Shown one piece after another: positions 347 through 50,150 of a stretch of DNA of 64,000 nt. A model generated the notes under the pieces. The model was given only the letters and a program-made list of their open reading frames with translations. It made no database searches and was not told the DNA's origin. A program made the position numbers and the translations under genes. The DNA is from a virus (lineage: Duplodnaviria; Caudoviricetes): the IMG/VR virus record IMGVR_UViG_3300033074_000711, positions 91,931 through 155,930 of that record; one strand, 5' to 3'. The first letter of the stretch is position 1; each line of letters starts with the position of its first letter.

Positions 347-640
347 ATGCCAATAGATAATTTCGAAACAATATTAACAGGCAGTGATAATATAAAAGCA
401 TTAAAATTATTAGCGGGTGCTAGAAAAGCTTTTGTATTAACAGCTTCAGACACAGTTGATGAAACATTATTATGTAGAGCAATACATAGTAATTCAGATG
501 GTACAATACGAGTATTATTAGCAGATGATAGTACGCCAATTGATTTTAAAGTAATAGCTGGTGCTGTTTATAATCTTCGTGTAAAAAGATTATTTGTTAC
601 AGGAACTGATGCTGGAATGAATATAATAGGATTGGAATAA
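347..640 (+). CDS. head spike base protein (RcGTA Rcc01079-like)
   Basis: 97 aa; AFVLTASD...RAI....GTIRV...G.VYNLRVKRLFVTGTDA..IIGL pattern matches this family; AGGA RBS. Confidence 0.65.
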   Translation: MPIDNFETILTGSDNIKALKLLAGARKAFVLTASDTVDETLLCRAIHSNSDGTIRVLLADDSTPIDFKVIAGAVYNLRVKRLFVTGTDAGMNIIGLE

Positions 641-642
641 CA

Positions 643-867
643 ATGGGTGGTTTAGGTTTTGGTTTAAGATTTATATTTAATCTTTTTAGAGGGCGAAGTA
701 GTTATAGTGCATATGTTAAAACTCGTTCGAATGATTATATATTAACTAGAGATAATAGAAAATTACTAATACCATCTTCAATAGATTTAGTATCTATAAA
801 AATTTATACCAAAGATGAAAATCAAATATTAACTAAATCTGGTATAGAGTTAAATTTAAAATTGTAA
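643..867 (+). CDS. putative head-fibre adapter
   Basis: N-terminal MGGLGFGL (like the GLGLGL N-terminus of spike-bound head fibres); two T[RK]xxxxILT[RK]x repeats. Confidence 0.45.
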   Translation: MGGLGFGLRFIFNLFRGRSSYSAYVKTRSNDYILTRDNRKLLIPSSIDLVSIKIYTKDENQILTKSGIELNLKL

Positions 868-886
868 TAATAAGGAATTGTAAATT

Positions 887-2797
887 ATGCCACAAATATA
901 TGGACTCAATGACCCACAATTAAATACCATTACTCCACAATTAACAGATGTTATATTAATAGAAAATGCATCAGAAACTGGTAAGTGTACGTTAGAATCG
1001 GTTAAACAAATTTTATTAAATGAAGATATTTATTATGATATAGGTGTAATGGGTACTGAAGGTGCTGGCGTTGGCGTAATACCAACTAGATATTTACCCT
1101 GGTACATTAGACCTATGGAAGGCACTGAAATAAAAGGTAGTGTTAATTATGGTAATTATAAATGTGTTATTGATAATTCTATAATGGTGTGTATTACAGC
1201 GTTTGTGTATAAATTAGAACATAATGGTACTACATTAATAAATAAAATTACAATTAAAAATTTTAAAGATTATAATTTTGATGAAAATTTAGCTATAGCA
1301 GATGGATTTGTATTACCAAGAGCATTTATAGATGGTGGTGAATTTAAAACTGCAATTTTAGTTGATAAATATAAATGGTCACTTACAAATGCAGTTGAAG
1401 GTGTAAGCGGAATAGCAAGTTCGATTAAAAACAGTAATCCAATATCAAGTTCGAGTGCTATGAAACGCTGGCGAACAGCTAATATTAGCAATGCAGTTGC
1501 TGGTAGTGGTATAGTCACTATCACAAGTACATCGCACGGATTCAAATCAAATAATACCGTCACTATTAGCGGTGTTGTTGGGATGACAGATATTAATGGT
1601 ACTTTCGTAATTACGGTAATTGACACAAGTAGTTATTCAATCCCCGTTAGCACAGTACAAACATACATAAGTGGAGGAGTTGCAAAAGTTGCGAATTATC
1701 CCGGCTCGTTTTCTAATTGTATTTCCAACGGACAAACGCCTGCTGATATTTATGGCGGTGCTTATTCGGTAGCAAAATCAAGAGGAAATGACTTTTTTGT
1801 TACTCCTATATATGTTTGGCAAGCAATACAAATATTACAACAAGCACATGCTCAAGCTTCTACAAGTAGTACTTATTGTGCTTGGTATGACGGAACGGGA
1901 GCTAAAAATTATCCAAAAGGGAATAACAACTATGGTGCTGATATAGATGACGGTACAATAACATTTTCTAATTGTACTGATGATTATTGGAAGGCATTAC
2001 CCGGAAATGAAGCCAAACAAAATGGGGGAGCAAGTAATTTAGCAAAGACTACGCATAATGGACAGGAATGCGGAATTAGTGGTGTGAATGGGAATCAATT
2101 TGATGTAGTAAGCGGGCTGACTTGTAAAACGACAACTTACACGATTGATTTGCTAACAGGTGATGGTTCAAAAGTAACAATTCATACAACAGCAAGCCAC
2201 AATAGAAGCGTCAACGATTGGATTATGCTAACTAATCTTGGTGCAGAAATTACCGATAAGTTGTTTAAAGTTACGGATATAGTTGATAGTCAAACGCTAA
2301 AAGTAGCAAGTGCAGTAACAAGTTTCACAGATACAAGTGGAACGATGACGGCTGGGACATTTTATTTGTTAAAAGATACGTTCCAAGTCAAAAATCTTAC
2401 AGGCGGGAATAGTTTAACAACAACAGATATGTTTAACTCTACATTTCTAAGTACTTATTGTGACATAGTTACTCCCGATTTCGTAAATGAAGGTGCTTTT
2501 GCTCAAAAGCATGGAAATGGAGCAAACCAAGTGCTTGAATTTAGCACGAATAAAACGTCAAATGCTTACAAAAAAGCGAGTGCCTTAATGCCAAAAGCAA
2601 ATGGTGTAAGTTCTTTGGGTACGAATCAATTTGGAATAGATTATTTTTATCAATATTTGCGTGACGAACTCGTCCCGATTGTTGCCGGTAGTTGGAATAA
2701 CGGTTCCTATGCGGGCGTGTTCTATTTGACCTTGTCTTACAACCGTACAAACTCGATCAGTACTGTTTCGGGTCGCTCTTGCCTGTATGTAAATTAA
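887..2797 (+). CDS. fibre/receptor-binding protein with C-terminal C-type lectin (Mtd-like) fold; DGR target
   Basis: LPRAFIDGG, VDKY, THNGQECGISGVNGN and C-terminal AGSWNNGSYAGVFYLTLSYNRTNSISTVSGR are CLec/DGR-target hallmarks. Confidence 0.75.
   Translation: MPQIYGLNDPQLNTITPQLTDVILIENASETGKCTLESVKQILLNEDIYYDIGVMGTEGAGVGVIPTRYLPWYIRPMEGTEIKGSVNYGNYKCVIDNSIMVCITAFVYKLEHNGTTLINKITIKNFKDYNFDENLAIADGFVLPRAFIDGGEFKTAILVDKYKWSLTNAVEGVSGIASSIKNSNPISSSSAMKRWRTANISNAVAGSGIVTITSTSHGFKSNNTVTISGVVGMTDINGTFVITVIDTSSYSIPVSTVQTYISGGVAKVANYPGSFSNCISNGQTPADIYGGAYSVAKSRGNDFFVTPIYVWQAIQILQQAHAQASTSSTYCAWYDGTGAKNYPKGNNNYGADIDDGTITFSNCTDDYWKALPGNEAKQNGGASNLAKTTHNGQECGISGVNGNQFDVVSGLTCKTTTYTIDLLTGDGSKVTIHTTASHNRSVNDWIMLTNLGAEITDKLFKVTDIVDSQTLKVASAVTSFTDTSGTMTAGTFYLLKDTFQVKNLTGGNSLTTTDMFNSTFLSTYCDIVTPDFVNEGAFAQKHGNGANQVLEFSTNKTSNAYKKASALMPKANGVSSLGTNQFGIDYFYQYLRDELVPIVAGSWNNGSYAGVFYLTLSYNRTNSISTVSGRSCLYVN
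2657..2797 (+). repeat. DGR variable region (VR); no template repeat seen in window
   Basis: Abrupt GC rise; invariant residues use A-free codons (ccg, gcg, gtg, ttg, tcg, cgc, ctg); variable positions are all NNY (AAY-derivable). Confidence 0.7.
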
Positions 2798-2815
2798 TTA
2801 AATTAAAGGTGAAAA

Positions 2816-3208
2816 ATGTATTATTATAATATTAATGAAATAGTAAAAGATTTTACAACTTATTCAATAGTTGTAGACGAAGGAAATAGATTAATAAAAT
2901 ATTCTGATGGATATTATGGAACAGAAAAACCTATTAATATGGATAAACAATATTCAGAATGTCAAATAATTGAAATACAATTTAATGATATTAAATCAAT
3001 GCTCGATAATTGTAATCATATGAAAATGATTAATAATCAAATTGTTTTTGAGATTAGATTAAAATATTCTATTGATGATGAAATGAAGTTAATTAAAAAA
3101 GCATTAATAAATCCATTAGACAAGGAATATTTGGAAATGCAAAAGTATATTGAAAATATTAAAAATATTTATAATATAACAAAAAAAGATATGGGATTAA
3201 TATTATAA
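2816..3208 (+). CDS. hypothetical protein, possible fibre chaperone
   Basis: Directly follows fibre gene; AAGGTG RBS; role inferred from position only. Confidence 0.5.
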   Translation: MYYYNINEIVKDFTTYSIVVDEGNRLIKYSDGYYGTEKPINMDKQYSECQIIEIQFNDIKSMLDNCNHMKMINNQIVFEIRLKYSIDDEMKLIKKALINPLDKEYLEMQKYIENIKNIYNITKKDMGLIL

Positions 3209-3225
3209 TAATGGAAAAATAAATT

Positions 3226-5004
3226 ATGGCAGATGTATTATTTCAAAATTTACCTTCACAATCAGTAGTAGCACCATCACATGAAGTATTGTTAGATAAT
3301 GGTTCAGTAACAGGTAGAGCAACAGTTAGTAAATTAATAGATTTATTTAATAACTCTGGTAGCATTAATACGTTAACATCATCTGGAAGTATTAATATTA
3401 AATCAAATTCAGATTCTTCTGGTGGTGGTGATATTAATTTTTTAGTTGGTAATAACGTATTAAATAATAAAATTAAAAGTAATGCTGGTGGTACACAAGG
3501 ATTATTTGAAGTAATTGAAACTCATATAAGTAGTTCGTTTTTATCAGCATCAGCTAATTCTGTTGGAATTGGTGCAAAAGAAAATCAGCTATATCGTATT
3601 GATGACGCTGGTAAAACAGGACAATTAATTTGTGCCGATGATTGGGGCGAGCCAAAAGGGGGATACATGTTTGATGGAGTGAATGATTATATTAGTGTAC
3701 CAAATAATTCTAACCTTAATTTTGGAATAGGTGATTTTAGTCTATCTTGGTGTGGGATCGTGAATAATCCTACTTCGGGATCCCAACACTTGGCTGGGAA
3801 AAGAGGTATTGGGTCTAATTGGTATAGAATAGTATTATATTCTACTTCGGGTAAACCAACATTAGAAGTAAACACAACTACAAGATTACAAGCAAATACA
3901 GTTTTGCAAGCTAATACTCTATATCATATAGTAGTTACAAGAATCAATGGAATTGCATACATATATATCAATGGGAAACTTGATATTTCTGGTAGTCTGA
4001 CATCTGATGTTAGCAATACTGATACATTTACGATCGGAGCTTATAGTTCATCAAATTATTTTAATGGAAAAACATTCTTTGCAAGAGTTTATAATAGAGG
4101 CTTATCCACTTCCGAAATTCTTAGTTTGTACAACAATGGATTGACAGGTCAAAATGTCTTACCGATTGCGGATGTAGGGGCGAATAATGATAACATGATA
4201 GGTAGTACATGGTTAGCTGTAGGGAATGTAAGCGAATTAGGGAGTGTTATAACATATTCACCCGATGGTATTACGTTCACTTATATACGGAATTCATTCG
4301 CTATTAGTGGGAAAAACAAAAAAAAATATAAATTAACATATAGTATTGTTTCTAACACGCTTATCGGTAATGGTGTCTTTTCATTAATGGGTAAAGCTTT
4401 AAGTGCTGGGAATAGTTTATATAACGGAAATAATTTACCACTTAATACTTCAATCGGATTTCATGCTATCGAATTTACGAGTGGAGACCAAAATACTTTA
4501 ACTCAAGAAGGTTTTCAATTATCTGCAGGATATACATCAGGGAATCTTGTTGTAGATAGCATATCAATTACCCAAATCGGTTGTGTAGCCGAATATCTTC
4601 CCGAAAATGCGGGTCGTATTGGTTGGATAGAAACTATGAATGGATTACATGGTAGTACAAGTGGTTCACCTATTTGTTTAACAGCAGAACAGAGTTCGCA
4701 AGTATATAAAGATTATAAATCAACTGTAACTGGAAATACAACATTAACATCTATTATTCCAAAAAGATATATATTAAAACAAATAATAATAGAAAATACA
4801 ACTGCTAATACTTTTACATTAAATATAGGTAGTAGTACTTCAGGTGGAACTGACATTGTTAATGGAGCATCAATTGTAAGCGGATTAACTACTATTACAA
4901 TTAATAAAACATTTTCACTAACAGCAGACCAAACATTATATCTACAAAGTAGTAATTGGAACTCTAGTTCAAATAATTTTTATTTTATAATGGAAAAAAT
5001 ATAA
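3226..5004 (+). CDS. fibre protein with LamG/concanavalin-A-like domain
   Basis: FDGVNDYISVP...FGIGDFSL...YHIVVTR...IYINGKL...IGAY...RVYNRGLSTSEI; N-terminus similar to that of 887..2797. Confidence 0.75.
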   Translation: MADVLFQNLPSQSVVAPSHEVLLDNGSVTGRATVSKLIDLFNNSGSINTLTSSGSINIKSNSDSSGGGDINFLVGNNVLNNKIKSNAGGTQGLFEVIETHISSSFLSASANSVGIGAKENQLYRIDDAGKTGQLICADDWGEPKGGYMFDGVNDYISVPNNSNLNFGIGDFSLSWCGIVNNPTSGSQHLAGKRGIGSNWYRIVLYSTSGKPTLEVNTTTRLQANTVLQANTLYHIVVTRINGIAYIYINGKLDISGSLTSDVSNTDTFTIGAYSSSNYFNGKTFFARVYNRGLSTSEILSLYNNGLTGQNVLPIADVGANNDNMIGSTWLAVGNVSELGSVITYSPDGITFTYIRNSFAISGKNKKKYKLTYSIVSNTLIGNGVFSLMGKALSAGNSLYNGNNLPLNTSIGFHAIEFTSGDQNTLTQEGFQLSAGYTSGNLVVDSISITQIGCVAEYLPENAGRIGWIETMNGLHGSTSGSPICLTAEQSSQVYKDYKSTVTGNTTLTSIIPKRYILKQIIIENTTANTFTLNIGSSTSGGTDIVNGASIVSGLTTITINKTFSLTADQTLYLQSSNWNSSSNNFYFIMEKI

Positions 5005-5060
5005 TGGCAATTAGATACAATTGGTAGTAGAGATGAATATGTTAAATAAGGAGTATAAAA

Positions 5061-5324
5061 ATGCCAGCTAAAACAAAATCTCAAAGAAGATTAATGGGTA
5101 TGGCTCTCGCTTATAAGAGAGGAGAATTAAAATCTGCTAGTGATGAAGTTAAAAAATTAGCAAGTAGTATGAGTGAAAAAGATTTAGAAGATTTTGCAAG
5201 TACATCAGAAGATAATTTACCAGAAGAAGAACTTAAAGAATATTATAAAAAATTATTGAATAAAACAAAAAAGATTATAAATTTATTAGAGAGAAAAATA
5301 AATGGAAATTTCAAAAATTTGTAA
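5061..5324 (+). CDS. DUF3008-like protein with C-terminal copy of leader motif
   Basis: MPAKTKSQRRLMGMALAYKRGE...SMSEKDLEDFAST; strong AAGGAG RBS. Confidence 0.65.
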   Translation: MPAKTKSQRRLMGMALAYKRGELKSASDEVKKLASSMSEKDLEDFASTSEDNLPEEELKEYYKKLLNKTKKIINLLERKINGNFKNL

Positions 5325-5532
5325 AGTAAAAGTGTTAGATAAAACTTCAACACACGTATTAGTAAAAGAATTACGAAAAGACCCAGATGATATTTACATC
5401 TTCGATATAGTAATAAAAGATTCTAATGGAGATATAATCGAAACCTTAGCTACTGATAGATATGAATTAACAACAAGTTCACCATTTAAATTAACAAAAA
5501 CTGAATTAGGTAAATTAATTGGCAACGAATAG
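5302..5532 (+). CDS. hypothetical protein
   Basis: ORF overlapping neighbours in operon. Confidence 0.55.
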   Translation: MEISKICKVKVLDKTSTHVLVKELRKDPDDIYIFDIVIKDSNGDIIETLATDRYELTTSSPFKLTKTELGKLIGNE

Positions 5533-6007
5533 TATTTTAGCAAATGATGATATTAATTCTAATGGGTATATAACAGGTAAAAAATCTGGTGTATATGCTT
5601 ACTTAAGTGCAAGTGCTGATACTGTAATTATTTCAGCAGGAACTTATTATCCAATAAGTGGTTCTTTTATAAACACACCTATAAATAATTTTAGTTTAGT
5701 TGCAGACCCTGCTATAAAATATGATGGTGCTTTAACTCAATATTTTGAAATTGATTGACATGCTAGTTTAAGTGCTAATGTTAATGGCGCTACAGCAAGA
5801 GTAGGAATAAAAAAGAATGGTAATATTGTACCATCACCTATGAGTGCTTATTTAAAAACTGCAGGTGAAATATATGCATTAAGTGGTACATGTATTACTG
5901 AATTAGCAATTAATGATAAAATTCAGTTGGTCGTTACTTCAGATGGTGATGGTGATATAATAAATTTTTTAAATTACACAGCAACAATAACGGAATTTTT
6001 TGATTAG
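5519..6007 (+). pseudogene. beta-sandwich (C1q/BclA-C-like) virion protein interrupted by one in-frame TGA at 5756-5758
   Basis: Frame stays open 82 codons past the TGA (HASLSANVNGATARVGIKKNG...ELAINDKIQLVV...EFFD) to TAG 6005-6007. Confidence 0.6.
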
Positions 6008-6635: not shown

Positions 6636-7079
6636 ATGAAAGAGTTATATGAAAGTGACGAATTAAAAGAAATCGGTGAAAAAATTATTGCCAAAGAAAA
6701 TTTAGATTTTGGTAATACAAGAATAGGTTATGTAATGGTTGAACCATATATTTCGAAAACAGTGTGCGGTAAATGCATTAGAAGTAATAATGAATTAAAA
6801 TTATTTTCTAATAAAGATTATATCATAGAAATTTCTTTTGATATATGGAATAAATTAGAACCAGAACAACAAGAATTATTAATGCTACACGAATTAATGC
6901 ATATTTTAGTTGTTCAAGACAAAGAAGGTAATAATCTATATAAGATTAGACCCCATGATATAGAAGATTTTGAAAAAATAATTAAAAAATATGGCACTGA
7001 CTGGATTAAAAAAATAAAACTATCTGTATCTAGTTTGTATGATTTAGACCCAAGTCAAGAAGATTTAATAAAAATTTAA
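6636..7079 (+). CDS. putative phage metallopeptidase
   Basis: LMLHELMH (HExxH) plus IRPHDIEDF..IIKKYG. Confidence 0.75.
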   Translation: MKELYESDELKEIGEKIIAKENLDFGNTRIGYVMVEPYISKTVCGKCIRSNNELKLFSNKDYIIEISFDIWNKLEPEQQELLMLHELMHILVVQDKEGNNLYKIRPHDIEDFEKIIKKYGTDWIKKIKLSVSSLYDLDPSQEDLIKI

Positions 7080-7091
7080 AAATTTTTTAAT

Positions 7092-7126
7092 TAACTATTT
7101 ACTTTTAGAAAAAAATGTATTATATT
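7092..7126 (+). promoter_or_regulatory. repeated sigma70-like promoter, copy 2
   Basis: taactatttacttttagaaaaaaatgtattatatt. Confidence 0.75.
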
Positions 7127-31638: not shown

Positions 31639-32283
31639 ATGAAAAAAGACGAATTTACATATGATATTAAAAAAGTTCACGCAATTTTAAGGGGTGAAGA
31701 ACCAACATTAAATATTTATCAAAATAATTTTGTAAAGAGTTTCGATAAATTAGAAGATAAAATTAATATAGATGGTGTTGAATATGAAGTTTTTACAGAT
31801 AGTGAAAAAAAATATATAAAAAGAAATGGTGTAAATGTAGATATTAAATTTTTTGAAAATTCTGGTGTTTCAAAACTAACATGTCCAAAGTGTAAAAAAA
31901 TATTTTCACATAAATTTGATAAATTTTATTACTCAAAAACAAATATGTGTTACTCATGTTTTATAAAATTTCAAACAGAGATGTTGATAGAAGATAAATG
32001 GTACGAATATGAAGAGGAACAAATTTTAAAAAGTAAATTATCATTTGCAAAAGAAACGCTACAAACGGTTAATGATATTTTAAATGGTGGTATAAAAAAA
32101 CAATATTCATATGTTAAAAATGAATCTGGTGAAGTTGAATATTGGGAAAATGAAAAATATTCAGAGGAATTAGAATTTTTTGATAAAGAAAAAAAATATT
32201 TAGAAAATATAATTGAATTAATTCAAAAATATTTAAATAAAGAAATAACAGCAGAAGAATATGATGAAAAAATAAAAAAATAA
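31639..32283 (+). CDS. hypothetical Zn-finger protein
   Basis: CPKC...CYSC; AAGGAG RBS. Confidence 0.6.
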   Translation: MKKDEFTYDIKKVHAILRGEEPTLNIYQNNFVKSFDKLEDKINIDGVEYEVFTDSEKKYIKRNGVNVDIKFFENSGVSKLTCPKCKKIFSHKFDKFYYSKTNMCYSCFIKFQTEMLIEDKWYEYEEEQILKSKLSFAKETLQTVNDILNGGIKKQYSYVKNESGEVEYWENEKYSEELEFFDKEKKYLENIIELIQKYLNKEITAEEYDEKIKK

Positions 32284-32290
32284 TTTTCAT

Positions 32291-32325
32291 TAACTATTTA
32301 CTTTTTATAAAAAATGTGTTATATT
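32291..32325 (+). promoter_or_regulatory. repeated sigma70-like promoter
   Basis: About 60 bp from here differ by 1 nt from the copy at 51662. Confidence 0.75.
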
Positions 32326-49662: not shown

Positions 49663-50103
49663 ATGAAACAGGAAGAAATCAAAAAGTTAATCAAAAGAAC
49701 TGAAGGGGTTCAGAAAATTTTAGAAAACCGATTGAACGAAGTATCAGAAACAGATGATTATAATTTTAGAAATATAAAAAGTATTTTTGAAAAAATAGCA
49801 AAAAAAGTTTATTCTGAAACAAAGATAAAATTAGAAATAACAGATAATGATATTAATAATTTATTAAAAATGGACCCGAGTAAAAGACTAGGTCAAGGTG
49901 TTAAATTAAAACAACCTAACGAAACTGTTAAGTGTCCTAATACTGGTGGTTCAATAACATTTACATATTCCTTTGAGCTTGTTTTTATAAATGGTAAACC
50001 AAATATATTATTTGATTCAAGTATTTCTAAAATGTCTGGAATTTTTGAACATTATATTTCACAAGATGAAACAGTAATGTTAAAGTTTAACGAAAATAGT
50101 TAA
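49663..50103 (+). CDS. long-leader protein
   Basis: MKQEEIKKLIKRTEGVQKILENRLNE; late motif at 49627. Confidence 0.65.
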   Translation: MKQEEIKKLIKRTEGVQKILENRLNEVSETDDYNFRNIKSIFEKIAKKVYSETKIKLEITDNDINNLLKMDPSKRLGQGVKLKQPNETVKCPNTGGSITFTYSFELVFINGKPNILFDSSISKMSGIFEHYISQDETVMLKFNENS

Positions 50104-50115
50104 AATAATTTTAAT

Positions 50116-50150
50116 TAACTATTTACTTTTATAAAATAATTTATTATATT
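50116..50150 (+). promoter_or_regulatory. repeated sigma70-like promoter
   Basis: Followed by tgtaaattaaattaa and agaggttataaaATG. Confidence 0.75.

Follow-up and report, generated by a model that had tools for sequence, protein, structure and literature searches.

A candidate head spike of the gene transfer agent type in a large myovirus, with a base homologue, a small plug-like adapter and two lectin proteins

Five plus-strand genes at the start of a 64,000-nucleotide stretch of viral DNA (the window, that is, the last 64 kb of the 155,930-base IMG/VR record IMGVR_UViG_3300033074_000711, judged 67% complete) may encode a head spike of the type known from gene transfer agents (GTAs). The 97-aa product of the first gene is a true homologue of the RcGTA spike base, in sequence and in fold, and very probably constitutes a capsid-vertex spike base; the second gene encodes a 74-aa protein, here called the adapter, which probably plugs into that base. 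The base assignment and the plug-like character of the adapter rest on homology, on fold and on a gene order (base, small plug protein, fibre) that recurs in several lineages. The overall proposal, a GTA-type vertex spike made of base, adapter and two anchored lectins, is more tentative and, in our view, falls a little short of an even chance. The features concerned are the following.

347..640, plus strand: probable head-spike base, 97 aa, Rcc01079/GhsA family, jellyroll (profile, model and Foldseek).
643..867, plus strand: putative adapter, 74 aa, with a plug-like segment (residues 1-15) and hairpin-like repeats at residues 29-46, YILTRDNRKLLI, and 57-74, QILTKSGIELNL (open reading frame and conservation).
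887..2797, plus strand: C-type lectin (CLec) protein, 636 aa, with an N-terminal anchor of ~45 aa, a CLec body and E1_FCCH-like beta-barrel inserts (model and Pfam).
2671..2791, plus strand: variable repeat of the diversity-generating retroelement (DGR) type, located C-terminally in the 636-aa protein, its variable codons being residues 602-626 (four-allele comparison).
2816..3208, plus strand: accessory gene, 130 aa, which always accompanies the CLec gene.
3226..5004, plus strand: laminin G (LamG) protein, 592 aa, with an anchor (1-45), a shaft, LamG (150-298) and a C-terminal domain (503-592) (Pfam and match to a protein of contig L007).

In RcGTA, the head spike is composed of a base, Rcc01079 (GhsA), and a fibre, Rcc01080 (GhsB) (PDB 6TB9/6TBA/6TSU/6TUI; PMC7296036). 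The Rcc01079 pentamer, located on the capsid pentons, takes up one fibre chain, whose residues 2-10 (IALGLGLGL) form a five-point star in it (PMC7296036), which matches the GLGLGL docking cited in an earlier reading of the letters alone (hereafter the sequence-only reading). That reading had also recognized an Rcc01079 pattern at 347..640, and this identification was borne out. Indeed, the single 97-aa sequence retrieved Rcc01079 as its top match in the PDB using phmmer (E=0.004), and a profile of 70 base-family sequences matched Rcc01079 (6tb9) over its full length (residues 2-83 of 84 aa, E=7e-20), as well as 8cjz chain h, named 'Spike Base Protein' (E=2.6e-10). In line with this, the AlphaFold model of the base (predicted local distance difference test score, pLDDT, 87.8) displayed the six-strand jellyroll and was aligned to 6tb9 by Foldseek with template modelling (TM) scores of 0.71/0.81 and an rmsd of 1.5 A over 77 columns, and to 8cjz, the mature capsid of Carin1, with TM scores of 0.58/0.64; Foldseek gave no significant match to the model beyond these two. 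The Carin1 spike base protein thus belongs to the same family as the 97-aa protein and shows that true phages also carry a GTA-type base on their capsid. The likeness to Rcc01079 is correct, and two solved particles place the base family on capsid vertices. This family comprises 303 representative clusters of 70-130-aa proteins, according to an exhaustive profile search, and the 97-aa protein is its sole member in the record. No Pfam family matched the base, and tblastn of the 97-aa protein against cultured phages returned no match, while another member of the family did obtain one. The base does match PHROG 12296, which is labelled tail fiber. This label favours a different reading of the cluster, in which the head spike would consist of the base and the 74-aa protein alone, as a short peg or as a holder for something else, and the lectins would be tail or baseplate fibres which merely share the cluster; we consider this doubtful, if worth weighing at each step below. 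The label, however, derives from unverified annotations of Rhodobacter phages, while two solved capsids carry the family at their vertices.

Base and adapter genes are translationally coupled, the adapter start codon lying 2 nt past the base stop codon. Its N-terminus, MGGLGFGLRFIF, which the sequence-only reading had rightly described as being of the MGGLGFGL type, presents hydrophobic residues (L, F, L, F and F) at positions 4, 6, 8, 10 and 12, like the star peptide of the RcGTA fibre. Five such alternating hydrophobic residues were found at the start of 28 of the 352 open reading frames (ORFs) of this AT-rich genome, and were accompanied by at least two intervening glycines in 2 of the 352. 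Such a pattern by itself is not unusual for AT-rich DNA, and the significance of the plug comes from its genomic context. Each of the four close lineages has, directly after the base gene and with overlapping stop and start codons, a gene for a homologous protein of 72, 99 or 106 aa; identity between adapters across these lineages amounts to 33-64%, and the TRDN repeat is invariant. The 72- and 74-aa adapters contain two clear repeat units, and the 99- and 106-aa adapters of the same clade three longer ones. Taken in isolation, the adapter is predicted to be disordered (Atlas model, pLDDT 0.39). It is very improbable that 643-867 is not a real gene and that AT-rich sequence gave rise to its pattern by chance. 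Such a view can draw on the frequency of alternating hydrophobic starts in this genome, on the lack of any adapter match in PDB, Pfam or PHROG and of any useful Atlas neighbour, and on a homologue search that returned the adapter itself as sole match; the frame is nevertheless kept and coupled to the base gene in the four close lineages, with its invariant TRDN repeat, and adapter analogues are present in distant lineages.

Across 86 further base-family loci, a strict plug-like N-terminus was found in 23 of the 83 ORFs located directly 3' of a base gene, compared with 41 of the 1388 ORFs that served as background; the count omits eight loci with a 37-aa ORF of the MKLALQIALALVGG type. Some of the ORFs after base genes encode long fibres, as in RcGTA, starting with MPGLGIGLGVGLGG (630 aa) or MFLGVGVPL (558 aa). 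Others encode proteins of 37-50 aa and are then followed by a fibre gene; they start with MLGLGLGL, MFLGISISL or MRIGLGLSI in distant lineages. Wherever the contig extends that far, a larger gene lies directly 3' of the small adapter, in every case except that of Pan1, a cultured Pseudanabaena cyanophage (ON968452). In Pan1, gene 101 is a base homologue, annotated 'GTA-like head spike base protein', and the 73-aa protein that comes after it, annotated as hypothetical, starts with MIGVGV and holds a VVLVTSDGRQITRD hairpin motif; by contrast with the window, no lectin gene follows. Mini-adapters of at least eight unrelated sequence types have a C-terminal part made of three short tandem repeats. 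Their loci and repeat types are listed below.

L018:1892-2017, L023:5803-5949, and loci in L051, L061, L068, L072, L087, L089, L108 and L045: mini-adapter ORFs directly after the base gene, 37-50 aa, then a fibre-like gene.
Mini-adapter repeat type: DFLLQENG / SFLLQEDG / FKISL.
Mini-adapter repeat type: ILPYAAENGTD / LYTAENGTD / SYTTEG.
Mini-adapter repeat type: GVWNDA / GVWDDT / DVWNDS.
Mini-adapter repeat type: LYLLMEDG / LYLELENG / QMIELE.
Mini-adapter repeat type: GFWDDS / GTYNDDS / TWID.
Mini-adapter repeat type: LFYRGPDGTS / RYLRPNGTS / FYLRP.
Mini-adapter repeat type: LGWPDATP / AAWPDATP / LSWPS.
Mini-adapter repeat type: ALFTFDV / SLFDGQD / VFG.

A chain combining a five-fold plug with repeated docking units would form a natural bridge over a symmetry mismatch, and the triple-repeat proteins of 37-50 aa are possible five-fold to three-fold symmetry adapters. 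The literature search found no paper describing such plug-plus-repeat adapters or three-part head spikes. Small proteins were also seen on both sides of a base gene: in contig L028, proteins of 49 and 43 aa (28-177 and 442-573), each with one ITD...N.I.I hairpin motif, flank the base gene, and next to this group comes a CLec protein whose N-terminus is anchor-like.

The two large proteins encoded downstream of the adapter carry different binding domains, as had been read from the sequence. The model of the 636-aa protein (pLDDT 87.4, with residues 1-8 and 10-34 below 50) found its top fold match in TaqVP (5vf4), a DGR variable protein with a C-type lectin fold (E=3e-11); Pfam placed E1_FCCH at residues 208-267, and homologues of this protein formed at least 351 clusters. 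In the 592-aa protein, residues 150-298 correspond to Laminin_G_3 (PF13385; E=4.7e-15, 56.5 bits for a gathering cut-off of 27.6). Its first 37 and its last 90 residues match a minimal form of only 141 aa in L007 (E=1e-8 and E=3e-23, respectively), so that the 592-aa protein can be described as an anchor and an end domain into which a shaft and LamG are inserted. A protein designated P0156 is 93% identical to the 636-aa protein in the CLec body and bears a different N-terminal anchor, which indicates that anchors can be swapped on a constant body. Homologues of the 130-aa gene, for which no Pfam or PHROG family was found, come directly after the CLec gene in L013, L025 and L026, and after the DGR reverse transcriptase in L033 and L034.

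At its C-terminus, the 636-aa protein bears the marks of DGR diversification. Four variable-repeat alleles (window, L013, L025 and L026) were compared, and they differ almost solely at positions 1 and 2 of about 13 codons, the interspersed codons being identical even at silent sites. By contrast, changes in the 111 codons upstream of the variable repeat affect mainly the third position (27/19/64 by codon position). With the template repeat of the relative L033 as reference, 23 of the 26 template-adenine columns vary, versus 12 of the 85 other columns (p=4e-12). This relative, whose target is 73% identical, and L034 both present the order target, bAvd, template repeat, RVT_1. Their cassettes are complete and lie within baseplate gene modules, as follows.

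L033:5306-8958: complete DGR cassette, template repeat ~86% identical to the variable repeat, followed by a homologue of the 130-aa gene.
L034:10001-13364: complete DGR cassette, template repeat likewise ~86% identical to the variable repeat, followed by a homologue of the 130-aa gene.

In each of them, 16 mismatches separate template from variable repeat, of which 15 in L033 and all 16 in L034 fall at template adenines. The record itself yielded no template repeat (blastn with a word size of 7, on the window and on the whole 155,930 bases), and no RVT_1 reverse transcriptase or Avd was found in it. A degenerate variable-repeat pattern had no match in viral_contigs and retrieved two further variable-repeat alleles, and nothing else, from metagenome_contigs. 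The four compared alleles share a cassette-less order, the CLec gene being directly followed by the 130-aa gene, and still differ at template-adenine positions, so that diversification has most likely gone on from a template and an enzyme located elsewhere, presumably in the missing third of the genome. The claim of a DGR-diversified fibre, made from the sequence alone, therefore stands for the strong signature of the variable repeat, although the record provides no template repeat or reverse transcriptase. On these sequence comparisons, DGR diversification of the 636-aa protein is well supported as a past process and probably still goes on. The likeness to DGR proteins such as TaqVP (5VF4) and BPP-1 Mtd thus extends to the CLec fold, the C-terminal variable repeat, the variation at template adenines and the target-Avd-template-reverse transcriptase order of relatives; the window protein differs from them by its missing cassette, by its place next to head-spike genes instead of tail genes, and by the E1_FCCH-like barrel inserts in its body.

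From a mechanistic point of view, one adapter chain would plug into each base pentamer, and its C-terminal hairpin-like repeats would dock the ~45-residue anchors of both lectin proteins, peptides that, taken alone, are predicted to lack a fold. In that case the C-type lectin protein, with its DGR-rewritten binding face, and the LamG protein would both sit at the capsid corners and serve for a reversible first contact with surface glycans. Docking of the lectins on the adapter we infer from gene order only, and whether at least one of them rides on it seems to us an evenly balanced question. In favour of it, a larger, fibre-like gene lies directly after the small adapter in several unrelated lineages, for which chance clustering is an unlikely source. 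The sequence-only reading went further and saw in the adapter a hub with one repeat for each different fibre. This record indeed has two repeat units and exactly two anchor-bearing proteins, a third payload having decayed (see below), and relatives with three-unit adapters of 99 or 106 aa have more module-bearing genes. Within the clade, the number of repeats thus seems to go with that of anchor-bearing genes, but simpler systems have three repeats and a single fibre gene; in its strict branched form, this model is unlikely. A related and rather unlikely arrangement is a plug-and-socket one, where each repeat docks one anchor and every head vertex bears two or three different lectins, one of them DGR-rewritten. 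The lectin set would then be altered by gain or loss of repeat units and anchor-tagged genes, and a docking motif on the end of a tail fibre would show the same lectins on the tail. The adapter could also act as a symmetry converter, one chain sitting in the five-fold base while its repeats jointly hold the chains of a single fibre, so that different vertices carry different lectins competing for the same adapter. The triple-repeat mini-adapters, at least eight unrelated ones preceding one fibre gene, and the three units of the 99- and 106-aa adapters speak for such a role, while the two clear units of the window adapter, instead of three, and the apparent relation between unit number and anchor-bearing genes speak against it; we regard it as unlikely for the window.

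Several observations weaken the case for one socket per fibre on the adapter or for a vertex spike that carries both lectins. Three short repeats followed by a single fibre gene fit one repeat per trimer chain, and not one per fibre gene. The two adapter repeats reported from the sequence are present and are retained in the 72-aa orthologue, but their score is modest, being reached by 110 of 5000 shuffles (p ~0.02). Likewise, the N-terminal module said to be shared by the two lectins is weak, being recovered at profile level (E ~1e-3): BLASTP gave no alignment between the N-termini of the 636- and 592-aa proteins, an anchor profile built without 636-type sequences returned the 636-aa protein as second match in the genome with a weak score (E=0.00097), the reverse profile search did not find the 592-aa protein, and a profile drawn from distant lineages alone detected neither anchor. 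The full anchor profile, for its part, designates these two proteins as its sole carriers in the 156-kb record. Moreover, in L033 and L034 the CLec homologues have baseplate genes on both sides and possess an Avd, a template repeat and a reverse transcriptase of their own; no base-family gene was found beside them in these two contigs. Baseplate_J and a sheath-initiator gene adjoin, which suggests a tail location for that family and favours the tail-fibre explanation of the window lectins, even if the window CLec anchor differs from the anchors of these baseplate-module homologues. Given this position of the homologues, head display of the hypervariable domain is put forward conditionally. Mtd, the classic DGR target, is itself a tail-fibre protein, which points in the same direction. 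The gene block that harbours the cluster also contains two tail-fibre-like proteins (822 and 497 aa) whose N-termini are Mtd_N-like (ILQFRRG...GELYLD), and the cluster is ~30 kb away from the head and tail genes. Finally, the 497-aa protein has two ILT motifs at its C-terminus, DIILTSDSYIKL and FVILTKSGTLKYYY, similar in sequence to the repeats of the adapter. The lectins could thus be tips docked on this upstream protein, which could offer the same lectins a second docking site, on the tail, as well as or instead of the one on the adapter.

Small proteins are also encoded directly before the CLec targets of L033 and L034. In L034 (9542-9998), the target comes right after a 109-aa protein without a known family and a 37-aa one that carries a triple repeat (YLLDETK/KFIRDENG/NHIQGD), and a similar 109-aa protein (110 codons including stop) precedes that of L033. 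Membership of these 109/110-aa proteins in the base family was ruled out by profile.

Two further features of the record relate to the proposed lectin set.

5519..6007, plus strand: probable decayed third payload gene in one frame, broken by an in-frame TGA (5756-5758) and without anchor (tblastn of an L027 protein).
L002:16140-17633 (88140-89633 of the record), ~2.3 kb before the window and upstream of the base: 497-aa protein with a Mtd_N-like N-terminus.

The L027 protein, which has an anchor of the type found in the 592-aa protein and the same domain as the remnant, matched 5519..6007 with 65% identity (E=1e-19). In L027 the payload domain retains its anchor, next to an adapter of three units. 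A search for relatives of the 497-aa protein yielded none.

The genomic setting is that of an AT-rich myovirus, with a GC content of 19-33% across 2-kb windows, and with minus-strand genes for tail sheath, major head protein and portal located at 43-57 kb of the record. The five spike and lectin genes belong to a plus-strand block of fibre-like genes which begins ~6 kb upstream of the window and runs in the order 822-aa and 497-aa proteins, 858-aa protein, the five genes, and a DUF3008 protein. An endolysin-like gene and replication genes border this block at one end, and early-type genes at the other. The sequence TATAAATA, located 40 nt upstream of the base gene, is common in this DNA (83 sites, about 50 being expected) and argues weakly for late expression. 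A conserved motif, TAACTATTTACTTTT...TTATTATATT, precedes many genes, with nine sites between 6537 and 55486 of the window (for example 7069-7126, 32268-32325 and 50093-50150), and is probably a phage-specific promoter class. In a close relative, the phage-like contig L004, a flagellin gene (Flagellin_N and Flagellin_C; 4704-5570, minus strand) adjoins the fibre/spike cluster.

GTA-type head spikes are known from two solved particles, of which RcGTA has a base that receives the fibre directly. The window system shares with RcGTA a homologous base of the same fold, the alternating hydrophobic start of the next gene product and a proposed glycan-binding role of the appendage. It differs from it in that plug and receptor-binding fibre form one polypeptide in Rcc01080/GhsB, with a fibre of 325 aa, whereas the plug resides here on a separate 74-aa protein which has hairpin repeats and no binding domain, the binding domains being found on further proteins with their own anchor peptides; the carrier is, in addition, a large myovirus (>156 kb) and not a GTA. 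The window system would thus be a GTA-type head spike divided among a base, a micro-adapter and lectins tagged with anchors, one lectin being a DGR target. As its small proteins are mostly unannotated, such a module is invisible to standard annotation. If this proposal is true, the micro-adapter would explain how capsid-displayed lectins can be swapped without altering capsid genes, and the DGR-diversified binding site would sit on the head, which bears on adhesion to glycan layers before the tail is engaged.

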